Positions 3,402 through 33,014 of a stretch of DNA of 64,000 nucleotides are shown piece by piece (positions within the stretch are counted from its first letter, which is position 1; the number at the start of each line of letters is the position of its first letter). Both the position numbers and the translations under genes were made by a program. This DNA is from a virus, in the IMG/VR virus record IMGVR_UViG_2936984999_000007; one strand, 5' to 3'. The notes under the pieces are model-generated. The model did not search any database. It was given only the letters and a program-made list of their open reading frames with translations, and had not been told where the DNA came from.

Positions 3402-3436
3402 AGTAGACTCCTTTCCTCCGGAGTAAATGTGACTCT

Positions 3437-4054: not shown

Positions 4055-4069
4055 AAGAACAAAGGTTCG

Positions 4070-4083: not shown

Positions 4084-4084
4084 T

Positions 4085-4113: not shown

Positions 4114-4196
4114 GAGGTGATTTTGGAAGTAATTCGTTGAAATGTATGGTGAAAAGGGTACACTAAAAACATTTCAAAAATTAAATTGGAAATGTA

Positions 4197-4225
4197 TTGA
4201 CTTATACTACGATAGATGATAGTAT
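4197..4225 (+). promoter_or_regulatory. promoter TTGACT-17-TAGTAT in front of the S/M genes, flanked by GAAATGT/ACATTTC half-sites
   Basis: Half-sites at 4140, 4168, 4190, 4237 and 4246. The perfect palindrome ACATTTCAAATGT lies at 4239-4251. Confidence 0.5.
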
Positions 4226-4275
4226 ATGTACATGAAAAACATTTCAAATGTATAAAACGAAATGGCGGTGAAAGT

Positions 4276-4887
4276 ATGAATGTTGAATTTGGAGATTTGA
4301 TGGGAATGAGCATGGTCGGAAGCATCATGTCCAGACTGCAGATAAAAGAGGATGACAGGATAAAGGGAATCAAAGCTGAAAAAGTTACCGTTCTGGTACC
4401 GAAAGCAATTTCTAATGGTAGTGTAAACCATCAAGAGTTGACAGAGTACGAGGTAAAGGAAGGAAGTGGACAATCACGGCTGACTGTTGTCGATGATATT
4501 GTTATAAAGCTGACAACACCTTATAGCTGTGCGCTGATTACGGAAGAAGATGAGGATTTGGTTGTTCCGTCCTATTGTATGATATGCAGAGATTTTGATA
4601 CGCAAGAAGTGGATTTAGACTATCTGGTTGGCTATCTGAATACTGAATATGCACGACAACTTCTTACGGCTGGGGTTGCTGCAACAACCAATTCGATGTT
4701 AAAGCCTAAAGATGTACATCGACTTCCAGTACCAATGCTTCCAATAGAGGAACAGAGATTGCTTGGGAGACTTTATAGGCTGAGTTCTGAGAAACAGTTG
4801 GTGTTGAAGCAGATGCTTACGAATGAAGAAGCGATGGCAGATAATCTTATAACATCAGCGATTTTGGGGGTGATGAAGGATGAATGA
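4276..4887 (+). CDS. type I restriction-modification specificity subunit-like protein (half-HsdS, single TRD)
   Basis: C-terminal conserved HsdS region: LDYLVGYLNTEYARQLL ... LPVPMLPIEEQRLLGRLYRL. The ORF-track start at 4216 lies inside the promoter, so the ATG at 4276 (RBS GGCGGTGAAAGT) is preferred. Confidence 0.6.
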   Translation: MNVEFGDLMGMSMVGSIMSRLQIKEDDRIKGIKAEKVTVLVPKAISNGSVNHQELTEYEVKEGSGQSRLTVVDDIVIKLTTPYSCALITEEDEDLVVPSYCMICRDFDTQEVDLDYLVGYLNTEYARQLLTAGVAATTNSMLKPKDVHRLPVPMLPIEEQRLLGRLYRLSSEKQLVLKQMLTNEEAMADNLITSAILGVMKDE

Positions 4888-6343
4888 TATAAAGTTGGTT
4901 GAAAGTAACGAACAGCCGATGAAAAATCATTTGCTATCGAGTCATGAAAGGATTCGATCAATATATTGGGCAATAGAATTAGAACTACGAGGCTGGGATA
5001 TTAGAAGTGCTTTTGTAGGGGGAACGGTATCTGCTATCGTGTATGTGACTTTTCTAAAATACATCTCAGACAGAAGAGATCAGTTAGGACTACAAGTTTC
5101 AGACTTGTATAGATATGATGCCTTGCTTAATCTATATCCAAATGTGGTTAACCAGCAAGAATTGTGCGAATACCTGGATGATGTGGAAAGACAACTGGGG
5201 CTTTCTCAGCGGCTGCTCCAAAATTTTGTGCTGGACATAAAAAGCCCTAATTTAGATACAAAATTTTTGAATGCTTTACACATTGCAAATGAATTGGACT
5301 TTAGAAGTAATGATATAGCACAAATTGAAATCGAAGAGCTTGTTCGTATTGTGGAAAAGGTGATTGAATCAGAAGGGAAGGTAAGTGGGCTTGTATATAC
5401 GCCTTGGGCTATTTCGACTTTAATGAGCGAAATCTGTCAGATTAAAGATGGAATGTCCGTATATGATCCGTGCGCTGGTTGTGGACTTTCTCTTATTCAA
5501 GCAATAAGAGGGAAAGACGTTAGCGTATTTGCACAGGAACAAAATATGCACATTGCTGCAATTCTTGAAATGCTACTTATTATGACTGGTGTGCGTAAGG
5601 GAGCAGTCCGGTGCGATGATTCGATTTGGCATCCATTAACGCAGACTTTCAATCAGAAGTTTGATTGTGTTATCAGTGAGCCGCCTTATATGAGGCCAGA
5701 AACATCCTATAGAATGTCGATTGATAAAAATCTGATTGGTCAAGTCTTATACTATCCGGACCAGAAGATTGAGGATACGTGGATTTTTATTAGACATATA
5801 GTGGCGTCTCTTAAAGAGAATGGCAAAGCAGCGGTACTAGTGCCAATGTCAATGCTAACTCGTGAAGGATCAGCTGCTGTCAGTAGGAAGAAACTGATAG
5901 CAGATGGTTATATAGATAGTGTTATTGAACTTCCGGCAAACGCATTCTCAAATCGGAATATGAAAACATCAATTCTAATTTTGCGTAAAGAAAGGCCGAT
6001 TCATAATATATATATGCTGGATCTGTCGAGAGGCTTATGGGACGAAAAGTGTAAGACTGGAAAAGATGGAATTGCCGAAATTACAGAGATGGTGCTTAAT
6101 CGTAAAATAGTTACGGGTGCGTCAGATATAGTAGAAACGGAAGAAATTGTTCAAAACGCTTATCAGTTAGGAGTTTCTCGTTATGTGCCGCAGGAAATTG
6201 ATGTGGAACAGTTTTTAGCAGATTCCGTAAAGCTGTATCGGACGGCAGATAAGCTGGAAGCAAAGTTTGAAAGATTATGCAGAGAGTTTAAAGAAGCAAT
6301 GGATGATTATAATGGATATTGCAATGAAAGAAAGTCGAAATGA
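4880..6343 (+). CDS. N6-adenine DNA methyltransferase, type I HsdM-like
   Basis: Motif I LVYTPWAISTLMSEICQ ... VYDPCAGCGLSL. Motif IV variant VISEPPYM (EPPY in place of NPPF). Overlaps the stop of the S gene. No R subunit in the window. Confidence 0.7.
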   Translation: MNDIKLVESNEQPMKNHLLSSHERIRSIYWAIELELRGWDIRSAFVGGTVSAIVYVTFLKYISDRRDQLGLQVSDLYRYDALLNLYPNVVNQQELCEYLDDVERQLGLSQRLLQNFVLDIKSPNLDTKFLNALHIANELDFRSNDIAQIEIEELVRIVEKVIESEGKVSGLVYTPWAISTLMSEICQIKDGMSVYDPCAGCGLSLIQAIRGKDVSVFAQEQNMHIAAILEMLLIMTGVRKGAVRCDDSIWHPLTQTFNQKFDCVISEPPYMRPETSYRMSIDKNLIGQVLYYPDQKIEDTWIFIRHIVASLKENGKAAVLVPMSMLTREGSAAVSRKKLIADGYIDSVIELPANAFSNRNMKTSILILRKERPIHNIYMLDLSRGLWDEKCKTGKDGIAEITEMVLNRKIVTGASDIVETEEIVQNAYQLGVSRYVPQEIDVEQFLADSVKLYRTADKLEAKFERLCREFKEAMDDYNGYCNERKSK

Positions 6344-7443: not shown

Positions 7444-7794
7444 GAGCGGGAAACATATCTTCAACAGTCTGGTTGAGGAAAGCCGTTGGTCATTTTGTTA
7501 TCATGTAATCAGTCCAAGGGACAAGCCCACAGAGTCAAATGAAAGCATCTGTCGGCAAGCCCCGGACAAATAAAAAAATATCGTAAGCCCGATTCTAGAG
7601 CAGGCGAAGGATACCATAGCAGAACTTCACAGAACAGCGATTTATTTGCTGGCTGTGGAGGTGTGCGGTTGGGATTATTCCTGCTGTCTCTGGAATCGGG
7701 CTTTTTTGTTTTATGCTCCTGCCAGATAGATCAGTGCCTCATCAGCATCCTGCTTTGGTATCTTTCCCTTTCAGAGTCCGGGGGAAAGGACAAA

Positions 7795-8553
7795 ACAATG
7801 ATGATGAACATGATGACTGGAGCAGTTGCAATCAATGGTGGCGTTGGTGTGATGGAGGTCCGCCAGCCGCAGGTAATGGAGAAAGCGGTACAGGACGCAG
7901 GACATATCGCCGCCGATATCGCGGAGAACGCACACATTACCTTACATGAACTGAAGGAAAAGATCGATGCAGTGGTGGAGAAAAAGCTGCCGAGTTTCAA
8001 GGCCCTCATGGAAATGAATCCGATGGCTGTAGCCCGGACGACTGTGAATGATGCTTCTCTGACTGTTTACCAGAACGGCTATGCAGTTTACGAGATGGAC
8101 GGCGCACACACGGTCATGGCAGTGGAGCGCTGCGGGGATTACCGCTATGACTTCACGGACGATACATATCAGGTAGTGCCGGCTGAGACTTTTGAGGAGA
8201 CTGAGTGGAGCGTACGTCTGCTCATGGAAGGGGAACGCCGGATGGAGCACAATCGGAATAATCGTACTGCTGAGACTGAAAATGTGTCCCTGGAATGCGA
8301 TGGCTCCGACTGGTCCGCAGCAGTTATGGTGGATTTTTTGGATGAGGATAATGCCGAGATGTTGGCAGATCAGGAACTTCGCCGTCTGTATGCAGCCATG
8401 AGTAAGCTGACCGAGCGTCAGACGGAAATCCTTCAGCTTTATTTTTATAAAGGTATGAACCAATACGAGATTGCAGAGGAACTTGGCATCTGCCAGCAGT
8501 CGGTTAACCGGATCATGAATCAGGCAGTAAAAAGGCTGAGAAAAAATTTCTAA
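7795..8553 (+). CDS. sigma-70 region-4 domain protein (phage sigma-factor-like regulator)
   Basis: C-terminus LTERQTEILQLYFYKGMNQYEIAEELGICQQSVNRIMNQAVKRLRK matches a sigma-70 r4 HTH. RBS GGGGGAAAGGA before ATGATGATG at 7795. Confidence 0.55.
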   Translation, partial: TMMMNMMTGAVAINGGVGVMEVRQPQVMEKAVQDAGHIAADIAENAHITLHELKEKIDAVVEKKLPSFKALMEMNPMAVARTTVNDASLTVYQNGYAVYEMDGAHTVMAVERCGDYRYDFTDDTYQVVPAETFEETEWSVRLLMEGERRMEHNRNNRTAETENVSLECDGSDWSAAVMVDFLDEDNAEMLADQELRRLYAAMSKLTERQTEILQLYFYKGMNQYEIAEELGICQQSVNRIMNQAVKRLRKNF

Positions 8554-18445: not shown

Positions 18446-18771
18446 GTACAGTAAGAAGTGCTGCGAGAGTTGCAGTCAATGAAAATCTGGACTGTTATGA
18501 GAATCTGGCAAATGCCATCATTCTGCAGGCGGTCAAGGATTACAAGAAAGCACTCCGCCAGCTGGAGGGCAATCCAAGAAATCAGGAGGCCCGGCATGAT
18601 AAGGTGCGGCTGGAGAAATTCTTCCGTTCTCAGTGGTACGGTGTTCTTACAGAACTTGATCCGGAGCGGCTCATGGCCGGGGTGAAAGAAAATGTGCAGC
18701 ATGAGATGAACGAGCGTAGGAGAAAGAAAGCGGAAAAGCTGCGCCGGAAAGCAGAACTGAGAGGAAGCTGA
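18442..18771 (+). CDS. hypothetical protein (GTG start, GTGA overlap)
   Basis: Translationally coupled ORF. Confidence 0.4.
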   Translation: MSTVRSAARVAVNENLDCYENLANAIILQAVKDYKKALRQLEGNPRNQEARHDKVRLEKFFRSQWYGVLTELDPERLMAGVKENVQHEMNERRRKKAEKLRRKAELRGS

Positions 18772-19358
18772 TGGGCTGGATCGGCCAGAAAGGAGGGCCA
18801 AAGGTGGAAGAAGAAAAGAACGTGGCGACTGCAGAACGGAACTGTTCCGAGCAGACCGATTATCTGGAGCAGGCAAGAAAACTGGCCGATTCCTATCGGC
18901 TCCTGATCCACAGACGGGATCTGCTCCGCCAGCAGTACGAGGATTCCAAGTCATGGTTTTACACCAAGGAGGAAATTGTCTATAAGCTGTCGCAGGGCGC
19001 ACACGAGGAATCCGAGCATGTGCAGACCAGCGGATTGTCGAATCCGGTGGAGCGTACCGTCCTCAACTGCGATAAGGTACTGGCGTCTATGAACCGTGAG
19101 GTACAGACTCAGCGCACGGAGCAGTTTCTGGAGCCATACTATGAAGTCTGTGAGCAGATCGAACTATTTGAGGTCGGGCTTCGCAGTCTCCGGGGCCAGA
19201 CCCGGCTTGTGGCAGAGCAGCTGTTTGTGGAGGGAAAGAAACAGACGGAGATCACAGGGGCGGATGGAAATAACTTGACCCGGCGAACGGTAGTCCGGGA
19301 AAAGAAAAATGCCCTTGTTGGAATAGCCGACACAATTTGCCGGTATCAGAAAAGGTGA
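18771..19358 (+). CDS. putative transcriptional regulator with a sigma-70 r4-like C-terminus (ArpU/RinA-like?)
   Basis: LRSLRGQTRLVAEQLFVEGKKQTEI resembles a region-4 HTH. Weak. Confidence 0.3.
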   Translation: MGWIGQKGGPKVEEEKNVATAERNCSEQTDYLEQARKLADSYRLLIHRRDLLRQQYEDSKSWFYTKEEIVYKLSQGAHEESEHVQTSGLSNPVERTVLNCDKVLASMNREVQTQRTEQFLEPYYEVCEQIELFEVGLRSLRGQTRLVAEQLFVEGKKQTEITGADGNNLTRRTVVREKKNALVGIADTICRYQKR

Positions 19359-19366
19359 GGTGGAAT

Positions 19367-19834
19367 ATGGAGCGAGAAGCAACAGAGGAAATGCTCCGGT
19401 ACACAGCAGAAGTCTGCGGAAAGTATCGGGAAATCAAAATGCTGGCTGAAGAAGCGGAAGCTGCATGGAAACAGAGCCTTGCACTGATGGCGGAATCAAA
19501 GTATCCAAGCGAAAAAGAAATGTACGAACGTGAGGCAGCAGAGGAACTGGAAAAATATGAATCCGCCCGAAGCTGGATGAAACTGGTGAATGCCACAGTG
19601 TCCAAAGTGAAGGAAGAAAAGGCAAGGCTGGTTTTGAAACAGAATTGTCTGGAAGGCGCAACGATGAAAGCGGTTCTGGTGGACAAAAAGGCAGAAATTT
19701 ATATGAGCCGGTCTACAGCAACCCGGTACAAAAAGAAAGGTCTTGCTGAACTTTCTTGCCGTTTGGTTCCGCTTCAAAGTCGCTTGGAAGAACTGGAGAA
19801 AAATATTTATAAAAATGAGCCAGTTTGGAGCTAA
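19367..19834 (+). CDS. hypothetical protein
   Basis: RBS GGTGAGGTGG. Confidence 0.35.
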   Translation: MEREATEEMLRYTAEVCGKYREIKMLAEEAEAAWKQSLALMAESKYPSEKEMYEREAAEELEKYESARSWMKLVNATVSKVKEEKARLVLKQNCLEGATMKAVLVDKKAEIYMSRSTATRYKKKGLAELSCRLVPLQSRLEELEKNIYKNEPVWS

Positions 19835-19980
19835 GTGAGCCACTTTGAGCCAAATTCTCTCTTAACCGTACATTGGCTTTTTGCTATACTTTAAACTAGG
19901 AAAATAGGAGAAACGAAGGCATGGAAAGTCCGGGAGCAGAAGATGCTGTCCGGTATTTTTTATGCCTTTTTACATTTTGT

Positions 19981-20015
19981 GCCGCCTAAAAGTGTGAACT
20001 TGGGCGGCCTTTTTG
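19981..20015 (+). terminator. hairpin GCCGCC-N16-GGCGGC + CTTTTT
   Basis: Precedes the mazF-like gene; isolates it transcriptionally from the upstream genes. Confidence 0.45.
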
Positions 20016-20040
20016 CTATCAACATGGAGGTGATATCCTG

Positions 20041-20610
20041 ATGGGACGAAAGAAAAGTAATGCCAGGCCGATAGAGCGCGGCCGCAAGATCCATGTCAAT
20101 AAATACATCAACCAGCGTGGAAAAACAAAGCCGCACCGCAGATCAGAGGCATCCTGTAAACTGACATCGAAAGAACCTCAGTTTTACGAGTTGCCAGCAG
20201 ATCAGTGGCCGGCAACAAAGATACCGAAGCAGTATGAAATCTGGTTTGCAGAATTGGGAAACCATTATGGCACTTCGGTCCAGAGCGGAAACCGTCCGGT
20301 GCTGGTCATCAGCAACGATATGGCAAACCGCAATTCCCCAATCATCACGGTGATCCCGATGAGTTCTAAGCTGAAGAAGCTGGAGCTGCCGGTACACATT
20401 CCGGTCACCGGGAAAGACTGTGAAATGCTCCGGGATGAGTGTCTGGAAGAATCCATTCTGCTGGTGGAGCAGATCACGACCATTGACAAGATGGTTCTGT
20501 GCAACCGGCTCTGCCGTGTGACCTCGGCCAGGAAAAAGCAGGAGATCGAAGCTGCTGTTAAAAAGCAGTTTGCGATGCAGGCTTGTACGGGAAGGGAGGC
20601 GCAGGCATGA
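20041..20610 (+). CDS. MazF/EndoA (PemK-family) endoribonuclease toxin homologue with a ~60 aa basic N-terminal extension
   Basis: Residues ~63-170 align motif-for-motif with B. subtilis EndoA: EIWFAELG ... GNRPVLVISND ... NRNSP ... KLELPVHIPV ... LLVEQITTIDK. RBS GGAGGTGAT. No mazE-like gene adjacent. Confidence 0.75.
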   Translation: MGRKKSNARPIERGRKIHVNKYINQRGKTKPHRRSEASCKLTSKEPQFYELPADQWPATKIPKQYEIWFAELGNHYGTSVQSGNRPVLVISNDMANRNSPIITVIPMSSKLKKLELPVHIPVTGKDCEMLRDECLEESILLVEQITTIDKMVLCNRLCRVTSARKKQEIEAAVKKQFAMQACTGREAQA

Positions 20611-23036
20611 TGGACATCAAGAACATTCCGGGCAAGCTGAAAACGACCTGCAGCTTCTGTGTCTGGAAGTTTGAAAAGCGCAATGGACAGAAAACGAAGA
20701 TGCCGTACAACCCGGCAACGGGAGAACGGGCAAAGATCAATGACCTGCGTACATTTTCGGATTTCAAGAATACCCTCGTCACCTATGCGATGGGTGGTTA
20801 TGACGGAATCGGCATCGCAGTCGGAAACGGCATCGGTGCTTTTGATATCGACCACTGTATCCGGGAGGATGGTACGCTGAACGATACAGCGGATACTGTC
20901 CTTTCCATCTTTCCTACGGCTTACGTGGAAAAATCTCCATCCGGGAAAGGACTGCGAGGTTTCTTCTGTGTGCCGGAAGACTACGTCTACGACAAGACAG
21001 TCTACTACATCAATAACCGCAACAAGGGTCTGGAAGTGTATATGCCCGGTGCGACGAACCGCTTCGTCACCGTAACGGGAGATGTTTACCGCACAGGTGA
21101 GATCCCAAACGATGAAACGGCAATGACAACACTGCTGGACACGCTGATGAAGCGAAACAAGCAGGTGCAGCAGACCCATTTCCAGCACCATTCGTACTTG
21201 GATGATGATGCTGTTATCGCACACGCCAACGAAGCCAGCAACTCGGAAAAGTTTAAAAAACTCTTTGCCGGTGACTGGGAAGACCTCTACGGCAGCCAGT
21301 CGGATGCGGATATGGCATTGCTGTCGATCCTGGCATTCTGGTGTGGCTGCGATGAGGAGCAGATGGATCGCATCTTCCGTACATCGGGCTTGATGCGTGA
21401 TAAGTGGGATCGCAAGCAGGCTGGTTCGACCTATGGTGCGATCTCTATCCGTAACACGGTCAATACCTGTTCGGCTGTCTATATGCCGGTCAATGCGCAG
21501 GACATTGTGGATGAGGAATTTTCCAAGCTGGATGAGGATGATTATATCGAGTTTCAGCCGGATCTCACCAAGATCACGGTCACGCTGGAAGAAATGGCTC
21601 CGCACACAAATGCCCGGTATGGAAGAAATGAGATCGGCATGGGCAATATGTTTGCGGATTATTTCAAGCAGATTGCCCGGTACAACAGTGAGCGTAAAGG
21701 CTGGTATGTCTATGACGGCTCTGTCTGGCGGCCGGACAAAGGCAATCTCAAGGTGTCGGAACTGGCAAAGCTGCTGGCTGACAAGCTGTATGTGTTTGCC
21801 CTGACGATCATCGAAGAAGATGCCAGGAAGCGGTTCATCGACCGTGTCCGAAAGCTGCAACTGCGTAAGAACCGGGAAACGATGCTGAAAGATGCCATGT
21901 CCGTGTATCCGATCTCCATGCAGGCGTTCGACAGGAACAAGTATTTCTTCAACTGCAAAAATGGAACGCTGGATATGCGGACACTGGAATTCAGGGAGCA
22001 TCGGCCGGAGGATTATCTCACAATGGAATCCGGTATTACCTATGACCCAGATGCAGACTGCACACGCTGGCACTCGTTTATCAAGGAAGTCATGTGTGGG
22101 GATGCAGATCTGGCAGACTTCCTTCAGCGTTCTTTGGGATACGCCCTGACAGGAGACACCTCGCAGGAGTGTATGTTTATCCTTTACGGTGCCACTTCCC
22201 GAAATGGAAAAGGTACTGCAATGGAAACATTCCTGAAGATCATGGGCGACTATGGAAAGACATCAAATCCGGATATGCTGGCAGCTAAATTCCGTGGTGG
22301 GAACACAGGCGGACCTTCGGAAGAAGTGGCTCGTCTGGTCGGTTCCAGATTTGTAAATATCTCTGAGCCAGAGAAGAAGATCACATTCAATGCGGCTCTC
22401 GTAAAAAGAATGACCGGCAACGATACCATCAACGCCCGATTCCTAAATGAGAACAGCTTTGATTTTATACCAGTGTTCAAGATTTTTATCAATACGAACT
22501 ACCTGCCCAATGTCAATGATATGACCTTGTTCCAATCCGGCCGACTGAAAATCATACCGTTCAACCGTCACTTTGAAGAGGGAGAACAGGACCAGGGGCT
22601 GAAGGGGCAGTTTGCGAAGCCGGAGAACCTGTCAGGTATTTTCAACTGGTGCTTGGAAGGGTACAAGAAGTATTGTAAGCAGGGGCTTGAAGTTCCAGAT
22701 GCAGTTAAGAGAGCCACAGAGGATTATAAGGATGACTCTGACCGAATTGGGCAGTTCATCGAGGCGTGGATTGAAAAAGACGAGACTTCGGAACTCAGGA
22801 CATCTGCTGCGTACCAGTTGTACGCCAAGTGGTGCGAGGAAAACGGATACTCGTCCGAAAACCAGAAAAACTTCAAAAATGCCATCGGTGTGCATTTCAA
22901 AATAACGAGAAAACGTCCAAAAGACGGCGGTGGTCAAACAACGATGATTCTTGGTTGTCGATTCCGTGATGTTCAAGAAGGAGCAGAAGATTCAACCGTT
23001 CAGGATGCTTATAAACCAAAGGATGTGCTCCTTTGA
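20607..23036 (+). CDS. primase-polymerase / VirE-family primase with D5-like P-loop NTPase domain
   Basis: N-terminal prim-pol domain plus C-terminal P-loop (ILYGATSRNGKGTAMETFLK). Overlaps the mazF stop by 4 nt. Confidence 0.8.
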   Translation: MMDIKNIPGKLKTTCSFCVWKFEKRNGQKTKMPYNPATGERAKINDLRTFSDFKNTLVTYAMGGYDGIGIAVGNGIGAFDIDHCIREDGTLNDTADTVLSIFPTAYVEKSPSGKGLRGFFCVPEDYVYDKTVYYINNRNKGLEVYMPGATNRFVTVTGDVYRTGEIPNDETAMTTLLDTLMKRNKQVQQTHFQHHSYLDDDAVIAHANEASNSEKFKKLFAGDWEDLYGSQSDADMALLSILAFWCGCDEEQMDRIFRTSGLMRDKWDRKQAGSTYGAISIRNTVNTCSAVYMPVNAQDIVDEEFSKLDEDDYIEFQPDLTKITVTLEEMAPHTNARYGRNEIGMGNMFADYFKQIARYNSERKGWYVYDGSVWRPDKGNLKVSELAKLLADKLYVFALTIIEEDARKRFIDRVRKLQLRKNRETMLKDAMSVYPISMQAFDRNKYFFNCKNGTLDMRTLEFREHRPEDYLTMESGITYDPDADCTRWHSFIKEVMCGDADLADFLQRSLGYALTGDTSQECMFILYGATSRNGKGTAMETFLKIMGDYGKTSNPDMLAAKFRGGNTGGPSEEVARLVGSRFVNISEPEKKITFNAALVKRMTGNDTINARFLNENSFDFIPVFKIFINTNYLPNVNDMTLFQSGRLKIIPFNRHFEEGEQDQGLKGQFAKPENLSGIFNWCLEGYKKYCKQGLEVPDAVKRATEDYKDDSDRIGQFIEAWIEKDETSELRTSAAYQLYAKWCEENGYSSENQKNFKNAIGVHFKITRKRPKDGGGQTTMILGCRFRDVQEGAEDSTVQDAYKPKDVLL

Positions 23037-23151: not shown

Positions 23152-23338
23152 AAAAAAAACAAATAAGAGAATCCGAGGTCTGCTTTTTATCTTGGCGGCC
23201 CAATTTTTGAGAAATCCATTTTGTGAGATATAAATTTTGAGTTTCACCTGAAACAGAGCAGGCAACCTTTGTGGGAGCCTATTTGTGGGCATGGGCAAAG
23301 GCGGCCTGCTTTGTGATACAAGAAAGAGAGGACAGAAC

Positions 23339-24406
23339 ATGAGTAAGATTATCACCTGTGAACAGGTCAGCAACGGCCATCCTGATAAGATCTGTGACCA
23401 GATCGCAGATGCCATTGTGACCGACATTCTTCAGCATGACAAGCACGCCCGCGTGGCGATTGAGTGTCTGCTGAAAAAGAGCCAGCTCTTTATTGCTGGC
23501 GAAGTCACTACCGATTACCGCCCAAACTACAACCAGATCGTACACGATGTGTTCAATCGTATCGGTGCCGAAAAGCTGGGCTGGAACCTGACCGAGCTTC
23601 TTCGCATCGGCATTCTGGTGGACAAGCAGTCCCCGGACATTGCACTGGGTGTGGATAAGGGCGGTGCCGGTGACCAGGGAATCATGTATGGCTATGCCAC
23701 CAACGAGACGGCAGAGCAGATGCCGATTCCCTACATGGTCGCCACCAAGTTCCTGCAGCTTCTCAAGGCACATCCGTCTAAGATGTTCCGTGCAGATGCC
23801 AAGGCGCAGGTCAGCTACGATTACGACACCGGACGCATCACCACATTCCTCTGCTCTGTGCAGCACAGCCCAGATGTGGAGGTCAGCGACTTCCGGCACA
23901 TCATCGAATCCATGATGGTGCTTGCCGCCTGCGAGTATGGTCTGGACGGTGACTTCACGAAGCTGGTCAATCCGACCGGCCGTTTCGTTCTGGGCGGCAG
24001 CTACGCCGACTGTGGTGTGACTGGTCGGAAGCTGGCGTGCGATACCTACGGCGGCATTGGTCGCATGGGTGGCGGTGCTCTGAGCGGTAAAGACCCCACC
24101 AAGGTGGATCGCTCCGCAGCATACATGGCGAGGAAGATTGCCAAGGACATCGTGCAGGCGGGCTACGCTGACAAGTGCGAAGTCCAGCTGGCCTACGCCA
24201 TCGGTGTGGTACAGCCGGTAGGTGTGGCTGTGGAGTGCTTCGGTACTGAGCACCAGTCCCTTGACTTCATCGAAGCCTATGTCCATGACAGCTATGACCT
24301 GACCCCACAGGGTATCATCAAGCGGCTGGGACTGCTGGATGTAGATTACAACAAAGTCAGTGCTTACGGTCATTTCGGTAAGGCTGGTCTTCCGTGGGAG
24401 GACTGA
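23339..24406 (+). CDS. metK: S-adenosylmethionine synthetase (MetK)
   Basis: GHPDKICDQIADAIVTDIL and GAGDQGIMYGYATNET. Full-length alignment to MetK; RBS AGAGAGGA. Confidence 0.85.
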   Translation: MSKIITCEQVSNGHPDKICDQIADAIVTDILQHDKHARVAIECLLKKSQLFIAGEVTTDYRPNYNQIVHDVFNRIGAEKLGWNLTELLRIGILVDKQSPDIALGVDKGGAGDQGIMYGYATNETAEQMPIPYMVATKFLQLLKAHPSKMFRADAKAQVSYDYDTGRITTFLCSVQHSPDVEVSDFRHIIESMMVLAACEYGLDGDFTKLVNPTGRFVLGGSYADCGVTGRKLACDTYGGIGRMGGGALSGKDPTKVDRSAAYMARKIAKDIVQAGYADKCEVQLAYAIGVVQPVGVAVECFGTEHQSLDFIEAYVHDSYDLTPQGIIKRLGLLDVDYNKVSAYGHFGKAGLPWED

Positions 24407-26204: not shown

Positions 26205-27473
26205 ATGAAAGCGACTGCTGAACTAAAGATGCTGCCGGTGTCCGTACTCAAGCCGGCTGCATACAATCCCCGGAAAAAGTTGAAGCCGGGGGATAAAGAG
26301 TACGAGAAAATCAAGAACTCCATCACGGAGTTCGGCTTCGCAGATCCTTTGGTGGTCAATGCAGACATGACGATCATCGGCGGCCATCAGAGACTGACTG
26401 TTGCAATGGAACTGGGATACACAGAAGTGCCTTGTGCGGTGGTGGACATCGACAAGACCAGAGAAAAAGCTCTGAACATCGCACTCAACAAGATTACGGG
26501 TGCATGGGATGATTCTCTGCTGGCGGATCTTTTGAAGGACATCGAGGATTCCGATTTCGATCTCGGAAAGACGGGTTTTGACCCGCCTGAGATTGAGACT
26601 CTGTTCAACAAGGTCCACAGCAAAGAGGTCAAGGAAGATGACTTCGATGTGGAATCCGAGTTGAAGCAGCCATGCTTCTCCAAAGAGGGTGACCTCTGGC
26701 ATCTGGGAAAGCATATCGTTCTGTGCGGTGATTCTACCAAAGCAGAATGCTACAACACCCTGATGGACGGAACCAAGGCAAATCTGGTCCTTTCCGATCC
26801 CCCTTATAACGTGGATGTGGAAGAGACTGCCGGTAAGATCATGAATGACAACATGGGCGATTCGGAATTCTACCAGTTCCTTCTGGCAGCGTTCCAGCAG
26901 ATGCACGACCATCTTGCAGACGACGGTTCCATCTACATCTTCCATGCAGATACGGAAGGGCTGAACTTTAGAAAGGCATTCAAGGATGCCGGGTTCTACC
27001 TGTCCGGGTGCTGTATCTGGAAGAAGAATGCGCTGGTGCTGGGCCGTAGTCCTTACCAGTGGCAGCACGAACCGTGTCTCTACGGCTGGAAGCAGAAGGG
27101 GAAGCACCAGTGGTATTCCGACCGGAAGCAGACGACCATATGGGAGTATGACCGGCCGAAGTCTAACAAGGATCATCCGACCATGAAGCCCATCGGCCTG
27201 ATGAGCTATCCAATCCGCAATTCCACTATGACCAACGGCATCGTCCTCGATCCGTTCCTCGGCAGCGGCTCGACCCTGATCGCCTGTGAGGAGACCGACC
27301 GTGTGTGCCGGGGCATCGAGCTGGACCCGAAGTTCGTGGATGTGATCGTGAAGCGGTACATCGAACACAGCGAAGGTCATTACGATGATGTGTATGTCAT
27401 CCGGGATGGGCAGAAGCTGAAGTTCGAGGAGGTGGCGACCTTCGAGCCGGAAAGCGAGGATGCCGATGCCTGA
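26205..27473 (+). CDS. ParB-like nuclease domain fused to an N6-adenine/N4-cytosine DNA methyltransferase (beta class)
   Basis: ParB N-domain (GGHQRLTVAMELG). Motif IV SDPPYN precedes motif I DPFLGSGST. Confidence 0.8.
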   Translation: MKATAELKMLPVSVLKPAAYNPRKKLKPGDKEYEKIKNSITEFGFADPLVVNADMTIIGGHQRLTVAMELGYTEVPCAVVDIDKTREKALNIALNKITGAWDDSLLADLLKDIEDSDFDLGKTGFDPPEIETLFNKVHSKEVKEDDFDVESELKQPCFSKEGDLWHLGKHIVLCGDSTKAECYNTLMDGTKANLVLSDPPYNVDVEETAGKIMNDNMGDSEFYQFLLAAFQQMHDHLADDGSIYIFHADTEGLNFRKAFKDAGFYLSGCCIWKKNALVLGRSPYQWQHEPCLYGWKQKGKHQWYSDRKQTTIWEYDRPKSNKDHPTMKPIGLMSYPIRNSTMTNGIVLDPFLGSGSTLIACEETDRVCRGIELDPKFVDVIVKRYIEHSEGHYDDVYVIRDGQKLKFEEVATFEPESEDADA

Positions 27474-28239
27474 TGTGAAATGTGTTCTCATTCACGACAA
27501 CTTCCAGAACTTCAAGTCTTATAACATCCCCAAGGCACAGCTGGTGATCGCAGATATTCCGTACAACATCGGTACAGATTTCTACGCCAGCCGGCCGGAC
27601 TGGTATGTGGATGGCGATAACAAAAACGGGGAGAGCAGCAAGGCGAGGAAGGCGGCGTTCAATACCGACTTCACCTTCAACATTGCAGAGTATTTCCACT
27701 TCTGCAACCGCCTGCTGAAGAAAGAACCCGGCACGGGCGAGAAGGATGCGCCGTGCATGATCGTGTTCTGTGCGTTCCAGCAGATCCCGAAGGTGATCAC
27801 CGAAGCAGAGAAATACGGCTTCAAGAATTATATCCCTCTGGTGTTCTGCAAGAACTACAGTCCGCAGGTGCTCAAAGCCAACATGAAGATTGTGGGTGCA
27901 ACAGAGTATGCGCTGGTGCTGTATCGGGGAAAGCTCCCGAAGTTCCGTAATCTCGGTGAGGACGGAAAGCCCCACATGATCTTCAACTGGTTTGACTGGA
28001 AGAGGGATGGCAAGGAATATCCGAAGATCCATCCTTCCCAGAAACCGATCTCTGTGCTGAAACGACTGATCGAGACCTTTACAGATGAGGGCGATGTGGT
28101 CATTGACCCCTGCGCCGGCAGCGGTTCCACGCTGAGAGCAGCAAGAGAACTGGGGCGCAACAGCTACGGATTTGAAGTGTCCAGAGATTTTTACCGGAAA
28201 GCAAATGAGCAGATGCTCGGAGAGGAGGCTTCCGCATGA
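27460..28239 (+). CDS. DNA methyltransferase (amino-MTase, beta class)
   Basis: ADIPYN ... DPCAGSGST. Confidence 0.75.
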   Translation: MPMPDVKCVLIHDNFQNFKSYNIPKAQLVIADIPYNIGTDFYASRPDWYVDGDNKNGESSKARKAAFNTDFTFNIAEYFHFCNRLLKKEPGTGEKDAPCMIVFCAFQQIPKVITEAEKYGFKNYIPLVFCKNYSPQVLKANMKIVGATEYALVLYRGKLPKFRNLGEDGKPHMIFNWFDWKRDGKEYPKIHPSQKPISVLKRLIETFTDEGDVVIDPCAGSGSTLRAARELGRNSYGFEVSRDFYRKANEQMLGEEASA

Positions 28240-30491
28240 GCACAGAACAGAATAAGACTTTGACCCTCGGCAGCCTCTTTGATGGCTCCGGGGGTTTTCC
28301 GTTAGGCGGTCTTCTGACTGGGCAGATCACTCCGCTGTGGAGCAGCGAGATCGAGCCCTTTGCCATCCGGGTCACGACCAAACGTCTACCACAGGTGAAG
28401 CACTACGGAGATGTATCCGTCATCAGCGGCGCAGACCTGCCGCCTGTGGACATCATCACCTTTGGCAGTCCCTGTCAGGATATGTCCATCGCGGGTAAGC
28501 GGGACGGTCTGGATGGTTCACGGTCCAGTCTGTTTTACGAAGCAATCCGAATCGTGAAGGAAATGAGGTGTAAGACCAATGGAGAAAAACCAAGATTTAT
28601 CGTGTGGGAGAATGTGCCAGGGGCCTTCTCCTCAAACAAAGGACAGGACTTCAAAGCAGTCCTCGAAGCCGTCATCGGTGTTAAAGAACCGGCCGCCTCG
28701 GTGCCTGCGCCTGAGAAGAAAGGATGGCCCGACGCTGACTACTACGTGGGAGACGGATGGAGCGTCGCATATCGAGTTCTTGATGCACAATGGTGGGGCG
28801 TTCCCCAAAGACGAAAACGTATCTACCTTGTCGCAGATTTTGCAGGTCAGAGTGCCCCAGAAATATTATTTAACTCCGAGGGCTTGTCTCGGTATTCTGC
28901 GGAGGGCTTCCGTGCGTGGCAAAGAGCTGCCGCCGGTGTTGAAAGCGGCACTGGAGAGGCAGGCTGCAACGGAGCAGGAGGACGGATCTGTCTGAACGAC
29001 CAGGGCGGAGAGCGGATGGATGTGACAGAGGAAGTGACAGCCACCCTCCGTGCGGAGGCACATCATCCCCCGTGTGTTATGGAAGCAGCTGGTTTCTGTA
29101 CCGAGCATTCCGCAAATGCCAGAAGCATCGGATATGAAGAGGAGCGGTCACCGACTCTCCGAGCTGGTGTCGTACCGGCCGCCATCGCACTGGAAAATCA
29201 TCCTGCTGACAGCCGGGTGAAGATTTCCGAGGATGATAAGGTGCAGACACTGACAAGCCGGTGTGGTACGGGTGGCGGTAATGTCCCGATGGTTATGGAT
29301 GCTGTTGAAAATTCAGTGGAAAGCCAGGTGAAAGATGTTGAAAACTCCCCGGCGGTCACGTTAAAGATCCGTTCCGGATGTGAAGGTGGCGGAAAGGGAG
29401 CCATCTGGCAGGAAGAAAAGTCTGCCACTCTTGGCTGCAACAACGACCAGACACTGTTCGTTCCGAAATGCTATGGTGTCTGCTCAAAAGCCAGCCACTC
29501 CATGATGTCCGACAATCCGCACAGCGGTTTTTATGAAGCGGAGACCTCCCGGACACTGGATCGCAGCGGTGGAGACCCGACTTGCAATCAGGGCGGCATC
29601 TGTGTGGTAGAGCCGGTCGCCTTTACTCAGAATCAGAGGGATGAAGTCCGGGATCTGGGAGATAAGTCGGCGGCACTGGCAGCAGAGCCGGGGATGAAGC
29701 AGCAGACATTCGTGGCACAGCCGGAAGATGTGACAGCTTTCCATGTGAACCAGCGCAATGAGCTGATTGACCTGCATGGCAAGTCCGGGGCTTTGATGGC
29801 GACCCGGAGTGATCAGATGCAGACCTTTGTCCTGCAGGGCAACATGATCGGTCGCAAAGATGAGAATGGCCCACAGGGGGATGGTGTCAATGAGGATGTC
29901 TGCTTTACACTGGATGCCACTGACCGCCATGCAGTCTGCGCACCGGAGGATGTGTATGCCATGACCACCGGCTCCTATATGCAGGTGGCAAAAGAAGTCG
30001 CACCGACTCTGATGGCACGGGATTACAAAGACCCGACCACCATCGCACCGGCACCACATCTGAACGAGGGTGTGGCTGGTACTGTGGCGACCGGGGCACA
30101 TCCCAGCGGCTTCAATGGGCAGGATGCTTTCAATGACCGTCTGGTCATCGACAACCCGGAGGCACAGTCCACCCCTGTGACCTACACCGTCCGCCGCCTT
30201 ACACCGACCGAGTGTGCCAGACTGCAGGGCTTCCCGGACTGGTGGTGCAGAGACCTTGGAACGGAGAATCCGACCGAGGAAGAGCTGGCGTTCTGGACAG
30301 ATGTGTTTGAAACGCACCGCAAGATCGTGACCCATGCCAAGAAGCCGAAGACGGAGAAGCAGATCCGGAAATGGCTGGCTGACCCGTATACGGATTCGGC
30401 AGAGTACCGTATCTGGGGTAACGGCATTTGTTTGGCCAACGCATTTTTTGTTCTGGCCGGCATCGCATGGTGTGCAGGTCTGGAAGAATAA
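28236..30491 (+). CDS. DNA cytosine-5 methyltransferase, unusually long (751 aa) with an expanded variable region
   Basis: Motif I FDGSGGF, IV GSPCQDMS, VI ENVPG, VIII QRRKRIY, IX/X RRLTPTECARLQGFPD. About 420 aa between VIII and IX, containing several TL/RDYKDP-type segments and internal repeats. Confidence 0.85.
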   Translation: MSTEQNKTLTLGSLFDGSGGFPLGGLLTGQITPLWSSEIEPFAIRVTTKRLPQVKHYGDVSVISGADLPPVDIITFGSPCQDMSIAGKRDGLDGSRSSLFYEAIRIVKEMRCKTNGEKPRFIVWENVPGAFSSNKGQDFKAVLEAVIGVKEPAASVPAPEKKGWPDADYYVGDGWSVAYRVLDAQWWGVPQRRKRIYLVADFAGQSAPEILFNSEGLSRYSAEGFRAWQRAAAGVESGTGEAGCNGAGGRICLNDQGGERMDVTEEVTATLRAEAHHPPCVMEAAGFCTEHSANARSIGYEEERSPTLRAGVVPAAIALENHPADSRVKISEDDKVQTLTSRCGTGGGNVPMVMDAVENSVESQVKDVENSPAVTLKIRSGCEGGGKGAIWQEEKSATLGCNNDQTLFVPKCYGVCSKASHSMMSDNPHSGFYEAETSRTLDRSGGDPTCNQGGICVVEPVAFTQNQRDEVRDLGDKSAALAAEPGMKQQTFVAQPEDVTAFHVNQRNELIDLHGKSGALMATRSDQMQTFVLQGNMIGRKDENGPQGDGVNEDVCFTLDATDRHAVCAPEDVYAMTTGSYMQVAKEVAPTLMARDYKDPTTIAPAPHLNEGVAGTVATGAHPSGFNGQDAFNDRLVIDNPEAQSTPVTYTVRRLTPTECARLQGFPDWWCRDLGTENPTEEELAFWTDVFETHRKIVTHAKKPKTEKQIRKWLADPYTDSAEYRIWGNGICLANAFFVLAGIAWCAGLEE

Positions 30492-30715: not shown

Positions 30716-31843
30716 ATGTTGAAGTTTGAACTAAATGTAGAGGAGCGCAAAACACTGGCAAAGCGGATGGAGGAGCTGACAGGCATCCATCCTTACTACA
30801 CCAAGGCGCCTCGGTATGCGTATGACATCGGAAATTACACCATTGACCGGGATGGCAACCTGCTGGTGGAGGCGGAAAATGCAGATCTGGAATTGCTGAC
30901 TACGCTGATGAACGAAGGTCTGATCCGCGGCGGCGAGGATGTGGATGCAGAGACTTTGCAGGAAACTGCAGACGAACAGCCTGCGGTAGACCTTGCCGAG
31001 GGTGTCCAGATGATTCCGGCAGTACATCCAAATGAGCAGGAGACCTGTGAAGGGGATTCAGAAGAAGCCGAGGAAGATGGGGAATCCGAAATGGAGAGTG
31101 CAGAGCAAATTCCATCGGAAGAAGGTGAGGAACAGCCTGTGGCAGAGGAAGCAATCCCTCTGGATGCGGATTTTTCTTTCCCGATCAGCCAGCATAACGG
31201 CGTATCGCTTCGCAACCTGGTCAATCTGATCTACAGCAGAGGGGAACTCGTCAGCAAGGCAACGGACGGCATTTTCCTTGCCGATAAGGGGCTGGTGGAT
31301 GCCTTGAAAGATGACAGCTGCACTTATGCGGTAGCAAATTTCATTCATGCGCTCAAAGAGTATGAAGAACAGCATGGTGCTTCCCTGGAAGGCTTGACGA
31401 TCACAGATGAGAAAGTTACCTTTACAGGTTTCCCGACTGCACCGGATTATGACCACCTGACTGCATTCGGACACCTTGCGATTCTGATGAACCAGCAGGC
31501 TATCAGCCAGAAGCGGATTCAGGCAAAAGAGGTGAACGATTCCAATGAGAAATACGCTTTGCGAACTTGGCTTCTGCGCCTTGGCATGAATGGCCCGGAC
31601 TTCAAGCAGACCAGAAAGATCTTGATGGAGAACCTTTCCGGCCATGCGGCTTTCCGCACAGATGAGGAAGCACAGAAGTTCCTTGCAAGGGAAAAGGCAA
31701 AACGGGATGCCCTGAAAGCCGCGAAACAGGCGGCACAGGAGGGCAGTGCCTCCGCTGGGGAAACGATTGCATCAGCAGATGCCGAGCCGACACAGCTCGG
31801 CTGTGGGGCAGACACGGCGCAGATGCTGGAGGCGGGAGCGTAA
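30716..31843 (+). CDS. acidic protein whose C-terminal ~45 aa module is homologous to the amidoligase C-terminus
   Basis: NEKYALRTWLLRLGMNGPDFKQTRKILMENLSGHAAFR here, versus NEKYAMRCWMLRLGFIGDEFATAREILLRNMEGNASWR in the 32076-33014 gene. Confidence 0.45.
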   Translation: MLKFELNVEERKTLAKRMEELTGIHPYYTKAPRYAYDIGNYTIDRDGNLLVEAENADLELLTTLMNEGLIRGGEDVDAETLQETADEQPAVDLAEGVQMIPAVHPNEQETCEGDSEEAEEDGESEMESAEQIPSEEGEEQPVAEEAIPLDADFSFPISQHNGVSLRNLVNLIYSRGELVSKATDGIFLADKGLVDALKDDSCTYAVANFIHALKEYEEQHGASLEGLTITDEKVTFTGFPTAPDYDHLTAFGHLAILMNQQAISQKRIQAKEVNDSNEKYALRTWLLRLGMNGPDFKQTRKILMENLSGHAAFRTDEEAQKFLAREKAKRDALKAAKQAAQEGSASAGETIASADAEPTQLGCGADTAQMLEAGA

Positions 31844-31999
31844 GCTCTCAAGCCCCCAGTGGGGGCCGGAAAATATGCGAGACCCTCTTCCATTGTACTG
31901 ATATTAGCTCTGAAAATGTACATTATCAAGCGGATAAACTGCAGAAATGTACACGATCATTCCTCTCAATATTTGTCGAATATATGTTCTTTTATGGCC

Positions 32000-32028
32000 T
32001 TGCTATTATGTGCACCTGACGGTAATAT
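32000..32028 (+). promoter_or_regulatory. cassette promoter copy 1 (TTGCTA-17-TAATAT plus conserved leader GCACATACCGAAAGGGAAAAC)
   Basis: Member of the 7-copy family; drives the amidoligase. Confidence 0.55.
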
Positions 32029-32075
32029 GCACATACCGAAAGGGAAAACAAGGAAAAAGCAAAGGAGAACATACC

Positions 32076-33014
32076 ATGAACGATAAAACAAGAGAGCAGA
32101 TTGAAGCCATGAAGAACCAGACCATCGGAGTTGAGATCGAGATGAACAACATCACCAGAGAAAAAGCGGCAAGAAAGGTCGCTGATTACTTCGGAACCAG
32201 AGCATGGAACGCCGCCAGCGAGTACGGATATTACAGCTGGGCTTGCAAAGACCAGCAGGGCAGGGTTTGGAAATTTCAGAGGGATGTGAGCATCTACGGG
32301 CCAGACGCAGAAAAATGCGAACTGGTCACCCCGATCCTCACCTACGACGACATCGAACCCCTGCAGGAAATCATCCGACTGCTCCGCAAGGCAGGCGCAA
32401 AGAGCGGCCCAAGCCGCGGATGCGGGGTCCACATCCACATTGGCAAAGGCGACCACACCGCAAAGACCATCCGCAACCTTGTGAACATCATGGCGGCACA
32501 CGAACAGCAGATCGGAAGAGCCATCCGGATTGATGCAGGACGCACCGGACAATATTGCCGGGTAGTCGACCACCGCTTCCTCGACCGGCTGAACCGCGAG
32601 AAGCCGACCACCATGCGCAAGCTGGAAGACATCTGGTACGAAGGCAACGGTTCCAGCTGGGAAAACCGGAATGTCCACTACAATTCAAGCCGATACCATA
32701 TGCTGAACCTCCATGCCACCTTTACAAAAGGGACCATTGAATTCCGCCTTTTCCAATTCGCAGACCCAGCGGACGGAAAGCGCAACGGACTGCATGCCGG
32801 TGAGATGAAAGCTTACATCCAGCTTTGCCTCGCAATGAGCCAGCTTGCCAAGATGGTCAGAACAGCAAGCCCGAAGCCCCAGCAGACCGACAACGAAAAG
32901 TACGCGATGCGGTGCTGGATGCTGAGGCTGGGATTCATCGGGGATGAATTTGCAACGGCAAGGGAGATTCTTCTGCGGAACATGGAGGGCAACGCATCCT
33001 GGCGGAACAAATAA
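32076..33014 (+). CDS. amidoligase (glutamine-synthetase-like, Amidoligase_2 family)
   Basis: IGVEIEMN start, YGPDAEKCELVTP, GCGVHIHIG. RBS AAAGGAGAAC. Confidence 0.6.
   Translation: MNDKTREQIEAMKNQTIGVEIEMNNITREKAARKVADYFGTRAWNAASEYGYYSWACKDQQGRVWKFQRDVSIYGPDAEKCELVTPILTYDDIEPLQEIIRLLRKAGAKSGPSRGCGVHIHIGKGDHTAKTIRNLVNIMAAHEQQIGRAIRIDAGRTGQYCRVVDHRFLDRLNREKPTTMRKLEDIWYEGNGSSWENRNVHYNSSRYHMLNLHATFTKGTIEFRLFQFADPADGKRNGLHAGEMKAYIQLCLAMSQLAKMVRTASPKPQQTDNEKYAMRCWMLRLGFIGDEFATAREILLRNMEGNASWRNK

Follow-up and report, generated by a model that had tools for sequence, protein, structure and literature searches.

A solitary MazF-like gene with a conserved basic N-terminal peptide, paired with a primase-helicase gene in prophages of gut Clostridia

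RESULTS

A MazF-like gene in the replication module of a prophage

The subject of this study is a MazF-like gene carried on IMG/VR virus record IMGVR_UViG_2936984999_000007, a stretch of 64,000 nucleotides that was analysed over its full length and is referred to below as the window. Judged from its sequence, the window holds a complete, inducible prophage of a temperate siphovirus-type phage, from Blautia and related Clostridia. The gene is an open reading frame (ORF) on the + strand, at positions 20041 to 20610, which starts with ATG and specifies a protein of 189 amino acids. An earlier reading of the same letters (the original prediction) had described it as a solitary MazF/EndoA-like endoribonuclease gene embedded in a replication operon. 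The gene does lie inside the replication module and is tightly coupled to a primase gene, whose ATG (20607-20609) overlaps its own TGA stop codon (20608-20610) in the sequence ATGA. The features of the locus are collected in Table 1.

Table 1. Features of the mazF-primase locus and of the left end of the prophage (positions in the window)
Feature	Position	Strand	Remarks
ImmA-type peptidase and HTH_3 repressor	2742-4000	-	Prophage left end, beside host genes
ORF165, 165 amino acids, unknown family	19337-19834	+	No Pfam, PHROG, NCBIfam or PADLOC family; not an antitoxin homologue
Direct TGAGCCA repeats, three copies, at 19816, 19836 and 19846	19816-19852		Just 5' of the -35 element; read from the sequence; repeat family D2
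Sigma-A-type promoter: TTAACC, 17-nucleotide spacer, extended -10 TG-n-TATACT	19862-19890	+	Only promoter-like site in a scan of 19000-21500
Purine-rich 5' end of leader RNA, CUAGGAAAAUAGGAGAAACGAA	19897-19917	+	Conserved in clade 1; putative function
Leader hairpin 1, about 24 base pairs, free energy -26 kcal/mol, then UUUUU	19918-19971	+	Intrinsic-terminator-like attenuator (predicted)
Leader hairpin 2 (GCCGCC...GGCGGC), then CUUUUU	19981-20014	+	In the minimum-free-energy fold; second terminator-like element
Ribosome-binding site, GGAGGTGA	20026-20033	+	7 nucleotides 5' of ATG; invariant column block in alignments of homologous loci
Conserved basic N-terminal peptide, MGRKKSNARPIERGRKIHVNKYINQRGKTK, codons 1-30	20041-20130	+	Net charge +10
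Variable disordered linker, codons 31-62	20131-20226	+	Length and sequence vary among relatives; low pLDDT
PemK/MazF endoribonuclease-fold domain, codons 63-177	20227-20571	+	Sequence matches, AlphaFold, Foldseek
Variable C-terminal tail and stop codon	20572-20610	+	Holds the primase ribosome-binding site, GGAAGGGAGG, at 20590-20599
D5/NrS-1-type primase-helicase, 809 amino acids	20607-23036	+	D5_N 5.9e-30, NrS1-1_pol-like_HBD 1.7e-29, Pox_D5 1.5e-9

Sequence, fold and catalytic residues all place the protein in the PemK/MazF family; one conserved recognition residue, discussed below, departs from it. Residues 63-177 match the Pfam family PemK_toxin (PF02452) over the whole profile, positions 1-109 of 109, with an E-value of 1.9e-20 and a score of 73.5 bits (cut-off, 23.1 bits), and there is a match to PHROG 1936, ‘MazF-like growth inhibitor’, with an E-value of 3.8e-18. 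The domain had been recognized at residues ~63-170 in the original prediction, and the motifs RPVLVISND, NRNSP, KLELPVHI and LLVEQITTIDK are all present. The ribosome-binding site that had been predicted in front of the gene is present as well. The closest solved proteins are the MazF/EndoA proteins of Bacillus and Staphylococcus (E~1e-14 for the single sequence and E~1e-24 for the family profile). An AlphaFold2 model was built with 81 close homologues (mean predicted local distance difference test score, pLDDT, of 51.6) and again after the addition of a sister clade (73.3); in the latter, based on 140 homologues, the MazF domain has pLDDT values of 83-95. The model has the beta-barrel fold of the MazF/Kid/CcdB type. 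Its top Foldseek match is 1NE8 (B. subtilis YdcE), with a template modelling score of 0.90, a root-mean-square deviation of 1.9 A, an E-value of 3.3e-12 and about 32% identity, and every one of the top 50 matches is a MazF/PemK-type structure.

Exactly the same protein is present in RefSeq as WP_173769461.1 (Blautia faecis), under the name ‘type II toxin-antitoxin system PemK/MazF family toxin’; at least 1000 contigs carry it, and it is very frequent in metagenomes of the human gut. A database search gave 312 homologues, and nearly all of the 120 that were listed are 185-256 amino acids long. Several alleles on metagenome contigs are frameshifted soon after the N-terminal extension (P0122, P0128, P0129, P0131, P0133, P0134, P0261 and P0271; designations of the form P0122 and L003 refer to homologous proteins and loci); these could be assembly errors or inactivated toxin genes.

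Catalytic residues are retained and a recognition residue is replaced

Gly18, Arg25, Pro26, Asn36 and Thr48 of B. subtilis MazF correspond to G77, R85, P86, N96 and S108 of the protein. Arg25 and Thr48 are catalytic in B. subtilis MazF, where their mutation abolishes activity or toxicity (PMC7354611), and Gly18 and Pro26 touch the RNA bases (PMC8634880). At the two catalytic positions, R85 is invariant, and S108 is Ser or Thr in all of the aligned homologues. Loss of the catalytic residues, which had been named beforehand as a finding that would point to an inactive domain, is therefore not seen. What is lost, and this does bear on that condition, is a residue of substrate recognition: Glu20 of B. 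subtilis MazF and MazF-Da (Glu24 in E. coli), located in the beta1-beta2 loop, aligns with an invariant Val80 (‘GTSVQSG.RP’ compared with ‘G-SEQGG.RP’), and the loop contains a one-residue insertion relative to B. subtilis MazF. The E20A mutant of MazF-Da is almost inactive, and E24A impairs substrate recognition by E. coli MazF (PMC8634880). This Glu is highly conserved among ACA/UAC-type MazFs, though not necessarily universal in the family, and phage relatives that lack the N-terminal extension carry Val, Ile or Lys at the position.

The replacement raises the question of whether the protein is a catalytically dead relic that has lost its ribonuclease function and is kept as an RNA-binding or structural protein, or as a mere translational leader for the primase. 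The near inactivity of the alanine mutant in MazF-Da is consistent with this, as are the several frameshifted or truncated metagenome alleles; the truncated alleles, however, come mostly from contig ends or low-coverage assemblies. A relic is also difficult to reconcile with the strong purifying selection across the whole domain among 140 sequences, including R85, P86, G77, N96 and S/T108. Moreover, the Val is invariant and common to the wider clade of phage MazF-like proteins, which argues for adapted specificity rather than decay. We consider a dead relic highly unlikely; Val80 seems instead to mark a subfamily, carried by phages, whose substrate recognition is altered. With Val in place of the recognition Glu, the cleavage site is probably not the UACAU of Bacillus MazF.

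No antitoxin gene accompanies the MazF-like gene

The gene is solitary, as had been predicted, with no MazE-, AbrB- or ribbon-helix-helix-type neighbour. A MazE-type ORF in the 206-bp gap in front of it (19835-20040) would have overturned this view; the gap was inspected, and no conserved ORF was found, the homologous gaps differing by insertions and deletions that are not multiples of three. Three small ORFs in the gap, of 32 amino acids (+ strand, 19943-20041), 22 amino acids (from the ATG at 19922) and 58 amino acids (minus strand), were considered and rejected because their ATGs and frames are unconserved in the homologous loci. In Pfam, PHROGs, NCBIfam and PADLOC, none of the four ORFs upstream of the MazF-like gene matched a family of antitoxins or defence proteins, and no antitoxin gene accompanies the MazF-like gene in any homologous locus. 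Among the extension-less relatives no MazE-like ORF was seen in the + strand neighbours, whose annotations and translations were read without a family search.

The nearest upstream gene, ORF165, requires separate comment. It was considered as an antitoxin, and as a homologue of the gene that precedes the MazF-like genes of Heliusvirales, and neither reading is supported: there is no significant similarity, and the exchange of ORF165 among loci is independent of MazF. In L012, a locus that carries the same direct repeats near the promoter (Table 1), its identity is 100%; in L011, L013 and L014, which carry different repeats and in which MazF is 93-95% identical, it is only 36-37%. Since ORF165 falls to 37% identity while MazF stays at 95%, it is unlikely to be a cognate partner of MazF. 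The repeats vary in step with ORF165, but not with the primase C-terminus, which is 92% identical in L013 and L014 and 55% in L011. ORF165 is probably a DNA-binding regulator linked to the promoter-proximal repeats. A sigma or helix-turn-helix assignment for the ORFs at 18771-19358 and 19337-19834 was not used, the hints being below threshold (KorA 0.0017, Sig70 0.015).

By these comparisons the locus is not a type II MazEF system: an adjacent antitoxin gene was looked for and none was found. A distant or host-encoded antitoxin may exist, as far as sequence analysis alone can tell.

A conserved basic peptide at the N-terminus

The basic N-terminal extension of about 60 residues that had been noted in this protein is real, and it is conserved. 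A motif of the HVNKYI type is present in 112 of the 120 listed homologues, the remainder being truncated gene calls or near variants, and residues 1-30 as a whole hardly vary among more than 100 homologues. Within the first 30 residues, M1, G2, R3, N7, A8, R9, H18, N20, Y22, I23 and K30 are invariant in 81 full-length sequences, and G14, I17, V19, K21, G27 and T29 are nearly so, while residues 31-60 differ among homologues in both sequence and length (about 15 to 110 residues of linker). The MazF domain is about neutral in charge, in contrast to the +10 of the peptide. Across lineages the invariant residues use two to four synonymous codons (AGA, CGA or CGC for R3; four each for G14 and G27), a variation that places the constraint at the level of the peptide rather than of DNA or RNA. 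A mis-called start codon was considered and rejected, as the ribosome-binding site, the invariant residues 1-30 and the synonymous codon variation all favour the annotated ATG. In the AlphaFold2 model, residues 1-25 have pLDDT values of 50-56 and the linker values of 34-48; peptide and linker are predicted to be essentially disordered in the monomer.

The extension matches no Pfam family. When an extension-only profile was searched against 1.84 billion representative proteins, 42 proteins were retrieved, which share the motif M-[GA]-R-K-N-x-R-x-K-x-E-Y-x-R-G-L-G-F-[DN]-P-x-K-Y-I. Those inspected are MazF-like proteins, with linkers of up to about 110 residues, or truncated or frameshifted fragments of them, with three exceptions: P0288 (90 amino acids) has the motif followed by an acidic tail, P0287 is a repeat protein that matches only part of the profile, and P0284 (L079 5001-5432, also in L080 and L081), the one real exception, has 143 residues and joins the motif, MARKNNRTSTAYRTSLGFDPAKYI, to an unrelated domain of 115 residues. 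The P0284 gene is chromosomal and monocistronic, between NUDIX and ABC/GntR genes. Its C-terminal domain has no match in Pfam, PDB sequences or PADLOC; a resemblance to DUF4258/RelE-like toxins is supported by no test. P0284 suggests that the extension motif is a portable module. A word-index search for a free-standing extension turned up only truncated fragments of the same MazF-like family. The sister clade, with proteins of about 164 amino acids on Oscillospiraceae-type contigs, has a shorter homologous N-terminus, MARKNNRMKTEYHRGLGFDPRKYI.

One proposed role for the extension, offered in the original prediction, is that of a regulator in cis. In this scenario the protein is a single-chain toxin whose peptide folds back onto the MazF domain to inhibit it, or destabilizes the protein, until a trigger such as proteolysis, nucleic acid binding or binding of a phage protein intervenes. 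Fused toxin-antitoxin proteins are known in other families (EzeT, CapRel), no separate antitoxin is present here, and the flexible linker is long enough to reach the active site. The charge of the peptide is a difficulty, because the groove of MazF binds RNA and the segment of MazE that blocks it is acidic, while the peptide is strongly basic. The extension-less phage relatives are likewise without an obvious antitoxin, so that an inhibitor is not needed to carry the gene. In favour of the idea, the catalytic domain is less conserved than the peptide; against it, the peptide hardly varies where the domain surface has diverged to 53% identity, and an external conserved partner fits this better than a contact co-evolving within the molecule. 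The first 25 residues of the model have slightly higher pLDDT values (50-56) than the linker (34-36), yet the model shows no confident docking of the extension. The idea is weakened by these considerations, and we regard it as distinctly unlikely.

Pairing with a primase-helicase gene

The overlap of the MazF-like gene with a primase gene was predicted correctly, apart from the family of the primase, which had been given as VirE. Pfam reported no VirE family in the downstream protein at E<=0.001, and its matches are instead to D5_N, NrS1-1_pol-like_HBD and Pox_D5 (Table 1). A primase gene follows directly in 68 of 68 assessable loci with the extension, compared with 0 of 9 loci that lack the extension motif; many of the 68 are close relatives, and the independent observations are far fewer than 68. 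The distance between the genes is -6 to +6 nucleotides in most of these loci and larger in five, including -34 nucleotides in L084 and +87 to +158 in L083, L057 and L075 (the pairing in L083 and L084 was checked by hand). Across the paired loci, identity falls to about 35% for MazF and to about 44% for the primase, and the upstream neighbourhood changes. L003, which has a short variant of the motif, has no primase gene following. From these comparisons, the MazF-like gene is the first of a conserved two-gene cassette with the primase-helicase.

The association suggests another possibility: the MazF-fold protein would work together with the D5-type primase-helicase, in an accessory or regulatory role. 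The peptide would dock on the primase or replisome, or on nucleic acid of the origin or leader, and the fold would cut or clear transcripts at the origin or fork, or modulate the primase; there may be little or no general ribonuclease toxicity. Such a role would account for the pairing being kept while upstream genes vary, and for the overlap of stop and start codons, although the co-occurrence may stem from no more than common descent of a single cassette, many of the loci being close relatives. A conserved peptide, a linker of variable length (15-110 residues) and a domain is the typical layout of a tethered docking motif. Other members of the same fold act on replication proteins, as CcdB does on gyrase, and phage P4 encodes Cnr, a small regulator of its own primase-helicase. 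MazF cleavage leaves a 2',3'-cyclic phosphate, however, and would yield no extendable primers. The lost recognition Glu suits an altered or non-classical activity, whereas the strict conservation of the catalytic Arg and Ser/Thr and of the RNA-contacting Gly and Pro argues for a working ribonuclease. On balance we think a partnership of this kind unlikely. In a more specific form, the peptide recruits the MazF-fold nuclease to the D5-type primase-helicase or to adjacent origin or leader nucleic acid, and the cassette couples RNA cleavage, to clear transcripts or regulate its own leader, to the start of phage DNA replication; this version, too, we view with considerable doubt. If it were true, a toxin fold would work inside the replisome rather than in growth arrest.

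A promoter and a structured leader precede the cassette

A terminator had been predicted directly upstream of the gene. Hairpins followed by U-runs are indeed present, but they are not merely the end of the preceding operon: they lie in the gene's own leader, 3' of a promoter. The -10 block, TTTTTGCTATACTTTA, is unique within the window and invariant even in loci in which MazF is only 53% identical. The leader folds with a minimum free energy of -56 kcal/mol (z = -4.67). Hairpins were assessed by folding each sequence separately and by direct counting of pairs; RNAalifold on a MAFFT alignment of the leaders gave no consensus structure, as insertions and deletions misalign the hairpins. All 33 of 33 distinct leader variants have a hairpin (-15 to -33 kcal/mol) and a U-run, starting 26-36 nucleotides after the -10 element, and the outer stem is paired in 118 of 120 cells despite GC to CG and TA to AT swaps in both directions. 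Hairpin 2 occurs in most lineages with other stem sequences (L004, L007, L033 and L034 groups) and is absent from the L026 group. In the distant loci L082, L083, L084 and L003, direct repeats, promoter, purine-rich start and terminator hairpin follow in the same arrangement, the leaders again beginning with A/G-rich stretches.

The direct repeats upstream of the -35 element are replaced in other lineages by different repeats at the same place (the upstream regions of L011, L004, L026 and L034; 4700-4760 in L084), and L082 has eight tandem 11-nucleotide units, ATG[AG]GACTTTG, at 680-770. Repeats of the TGAGCCA type could be sites for a lineage-specific regulator or activator, or possibly origin iterons. 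Taken together, the elements would form an activator-dependent promoter and a leader attenuator that gate the mazF-primase cassette, their functions, including that of the terminator, and the timing of the promoter being predicted from sequence.

In most clade-1 lineages the U-rich spacer between the two hairpins contains UACAU, the site of B. subtilis and S. aureus MazF (UUUUUACAU, 19967-19980 in the window). In L036 and L040 it reads UACAC, and L010 and L026 lack it; the word may be no more than a piece of the terminator tail.

The order of promoter, short structured RNA, terminator and nuclease gene is that of type III (ToxIN) loci. It is therefore necessary to consider a defence or addiction module expressed in the lysogen, in which the short leader transcript is a type III-like or antisense-like antidote and the protein a toxin for abortive infection or superinfection exclusion. 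The leader is strongly structured and conserved; on the other hand, clades diverge widely in its sequence, and the second hairpin can be dispensed with. The repeats that characterize the antitoxic RNA of type III loci are absent: there is no tandem repeat array in the transcribed leader, and a search of 19500-20700 gave no tandem repeats, the direct repeats that do occur being short and two-copy. (The only repeats seen in a transcribed leader are those of L084, where about five copies of AATCGAC(A) lie between terminator and ribosome-binding site at 4900-4960.) The leader has no match in Rfam (best E-values 0.1 and 0.48, far below the gathering thresholds), and there is no match to a PADLOC defence model. 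The toxin is PemK/MazF and not ToxN/AbiQ, and the gene is not a moron beside the repressor or at a prophage end, but is co-oriented with, and translationally coupled to, an essential replication gene into which the locus continues, in the middle of a lytic operon. Going by its sequence features, the locus is not a type III system, antitoxic RNA repeats having been looked for and not found, and a lysogen-expressed module with an RNA antidote is so improbable that we give it little weight.

The prophage and its hosts

At the left end of the window, host genes for an AraC-type regulator and a dTDP-sugar epimerase adjoin the repressor region. After the repressor, the + strand encodes a sigma-70-like protein, an exonuclease, a Gp2.5-like single-stranded DNA-binding protein, PolA, a DUF932 protein and an SNF2 helicase, followed by four unknown ORFs, the MazF-like gene, the primase-helicase, MetK, an HNH nuclease and several DNA methyltransferases. 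Further along this strand come the structural genes, for TerL, portal, major head protein and tape measure. Relatives are found on many viral contigs and inside isolate-genome scaffolds of 0.16-1.09 Mb from Clostridium fessum, Blautia faecis and Faecalibacterium.

Some other genes of the prophage may be mentioned. The sigma-70-like protein of the early region (296 amino acids, 7663-8553; Sigma70_r4, E=4e-15) may direct later promoters. Between 4200 and 63600 the phage strongly avoids the palindromes GGCC, CGCG, GATC, GGWCC, CCWGG and CCATGG, the last being observed once against 21 expected. There are four DNA methyltransferase genes (4880-6343, 26205-27473, 27460-28239 and 28236-30491), and the S-adenosylmethionine synthetase MetK is encoded at 23285-24406; together with the avoided palindromes these look like a heavy investment in anti-restriction. 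Two adjacent genes of the amidoligase family (PHROG 2443; 30716-31843 and 31947-33014) are located between the methyltransferase and packaging genes.

DISCUSSION

We suggest that the product of the gene is a MazF-fold endoribonuclease used by a temperate siphovirus in its lytic cycle, and not the toxin half of a toxin-antitoxin pair, a proposal that in our judgement stands about evenly between right and wrong. In the lysogen, the gene would be silent, with the phage repressor, the activator-dependent promoter and the leader terminators standing in for an antitoxin. After induction, read-through or antitermination would yield the nuclease together with the primase as replication begins. The nuclease would then recognize a short sequence in single-stranded RNA of the host, in early phage RNA or in both, and cut there; the cleavage could free ribosomes and nucleotides and move expression toward the next phase, as RegB does in phage T4. 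An antitoxin would not be needed, because transcription would keep the gene off in the lysogen; the logic would be that of holins or T4 RegB, which have no need of one either. The lack of an antitoxin is less paradoxical than had been implied, since a repressor controls the prophage and the gene is part of its lytic programme, and since the extension-less phage relatives, as far as a reading of annotations and translations shows, likewise have no MazE-like ORF among their + strand neighbours. The host-mRNA shutoff that was originally proposed is a plausible role.

The N-terminal peptide would be a tethered docking or targeting element, as its layout of conserved peptide, variable linker and enzyme suggests. 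Its partner may be RNA or the ribosome; the primase or replisome is also a candidate, because extension and primase strictly co-occur.

Several points weigh against this proposal. The nuclease activity is a prediction, as are the function of the terminator and the timing of the promoter, and Val80 in place of Glu could mean that activity is low, changed in kind or lost. A test for k-mers depleted on the transcribed strand in particular was negative, only palindromic words of the restriction type being depleted, and phage mRNAs thus give no sign of avoiding a cleavage site; this is a weak test, since the cleavage site is unknown and phage early RNAs may be targets. UACAU occurs 37 times on the phage coding strand. 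Finally, a role linked to replication, for which plain shutoff would not account, is hinted at by the perfect association of extension and primase.

The protein can be compared with several known systems. The type II toxins of B. subtilis (EndoA/YdcE) and S. aureus (1NE8, 4MDX and 4MZM) have the same fold, a domain that is matched over its full length, and the equivalents of the catalytic Arg25 and Thr48 and of Gly18, Pro26 and Asn36. They differ in having a MazE partner and operon and in lacking the extension of 60 residues, and the present gene differs from theirs in its location in a phage lytic replication operon, where it overlaps the primase gene. The phage proteins of PHROG 1936, such as those of Ca. 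Heliusvirales (PV036437, PV036424), are homologous to the protein (36% identity, E=5e-21), are likewise solitary, lie in the DNA-metabolism region of phages of gut Clostridia and have S-V/I/K-Q in place of S-E-Q. Unlike the present protein, they are about 120-134 amino acids long and lack the N-terminal motif, and no primase gene comes after theirs. Extension-less MazF-like genes also occur in the IMG/VR loci L059-L063, around 3960-4380; they encode 131-134 amino acids with ‘S[IV]Q.GYRP’ and are flanked on both sides by paralogous proteins of 315-342 amino acids of unknown family, and these loci look like a different kind of mobile element.

A solitary MazF homologue without an adjacent mazE is known from Myxococcus xanthus, where MazF-mx is used in a developmental programme. 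MazF-mx is chromosomal, an unrelated regulator acts as its antitoxin, and it has no N-terminal motif. A parallel in logic is T4 RegB, a sequence-specific phage ribonuclease of the RelE/YoeB fold with no known antitoxin, which inactivates early mRNAs and speeds the switch between phases (PMC3014915). The likeness is limited to a toxin-fold phage endoribonuclease without an antitoxin, an activity that is predicted here. RegB differs in its RelE/YoeB-like fold, in its virulent phage, in its early promoter and in its dependence on ribosomal protein S1, and no sequence relationship was found or expected.

Solitary MazF-like genes of gut phages have already been annotated, in PHROG 1936, in Heliusvirales genomes and in RefSeq, and in the literature searched none of these solitary or phage-encoded MazF proteins was found to have been studied functionally. 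The N-terminal motif, the strict pairing with a D5-type primase-helicase and the conserved promoter-terminator leader appear to be undescribed. We note that the label ‘type II toxin-antitoxin system’ on WP_173769461.1 suggests a toxin-antitoxin module that is absent.

Finally, the reuse of toxin folds by phages as regulated lytic enzymes is known, T4 RegB being the only well-studied case cited here. If our proposal is true, this theme would extend to MazF and to the temperate phages of dominant gut Clostridia. The subfamily is sharply delimited by three linked features: the basic N-terminal motif, the pairing with a primase-helicase and the promoter-terminator leader. These provide experimental handles on how a prophage silences a potentially lethal nuclease without an antitoxin, and on the role that the nuclease may have at the onset of replication.

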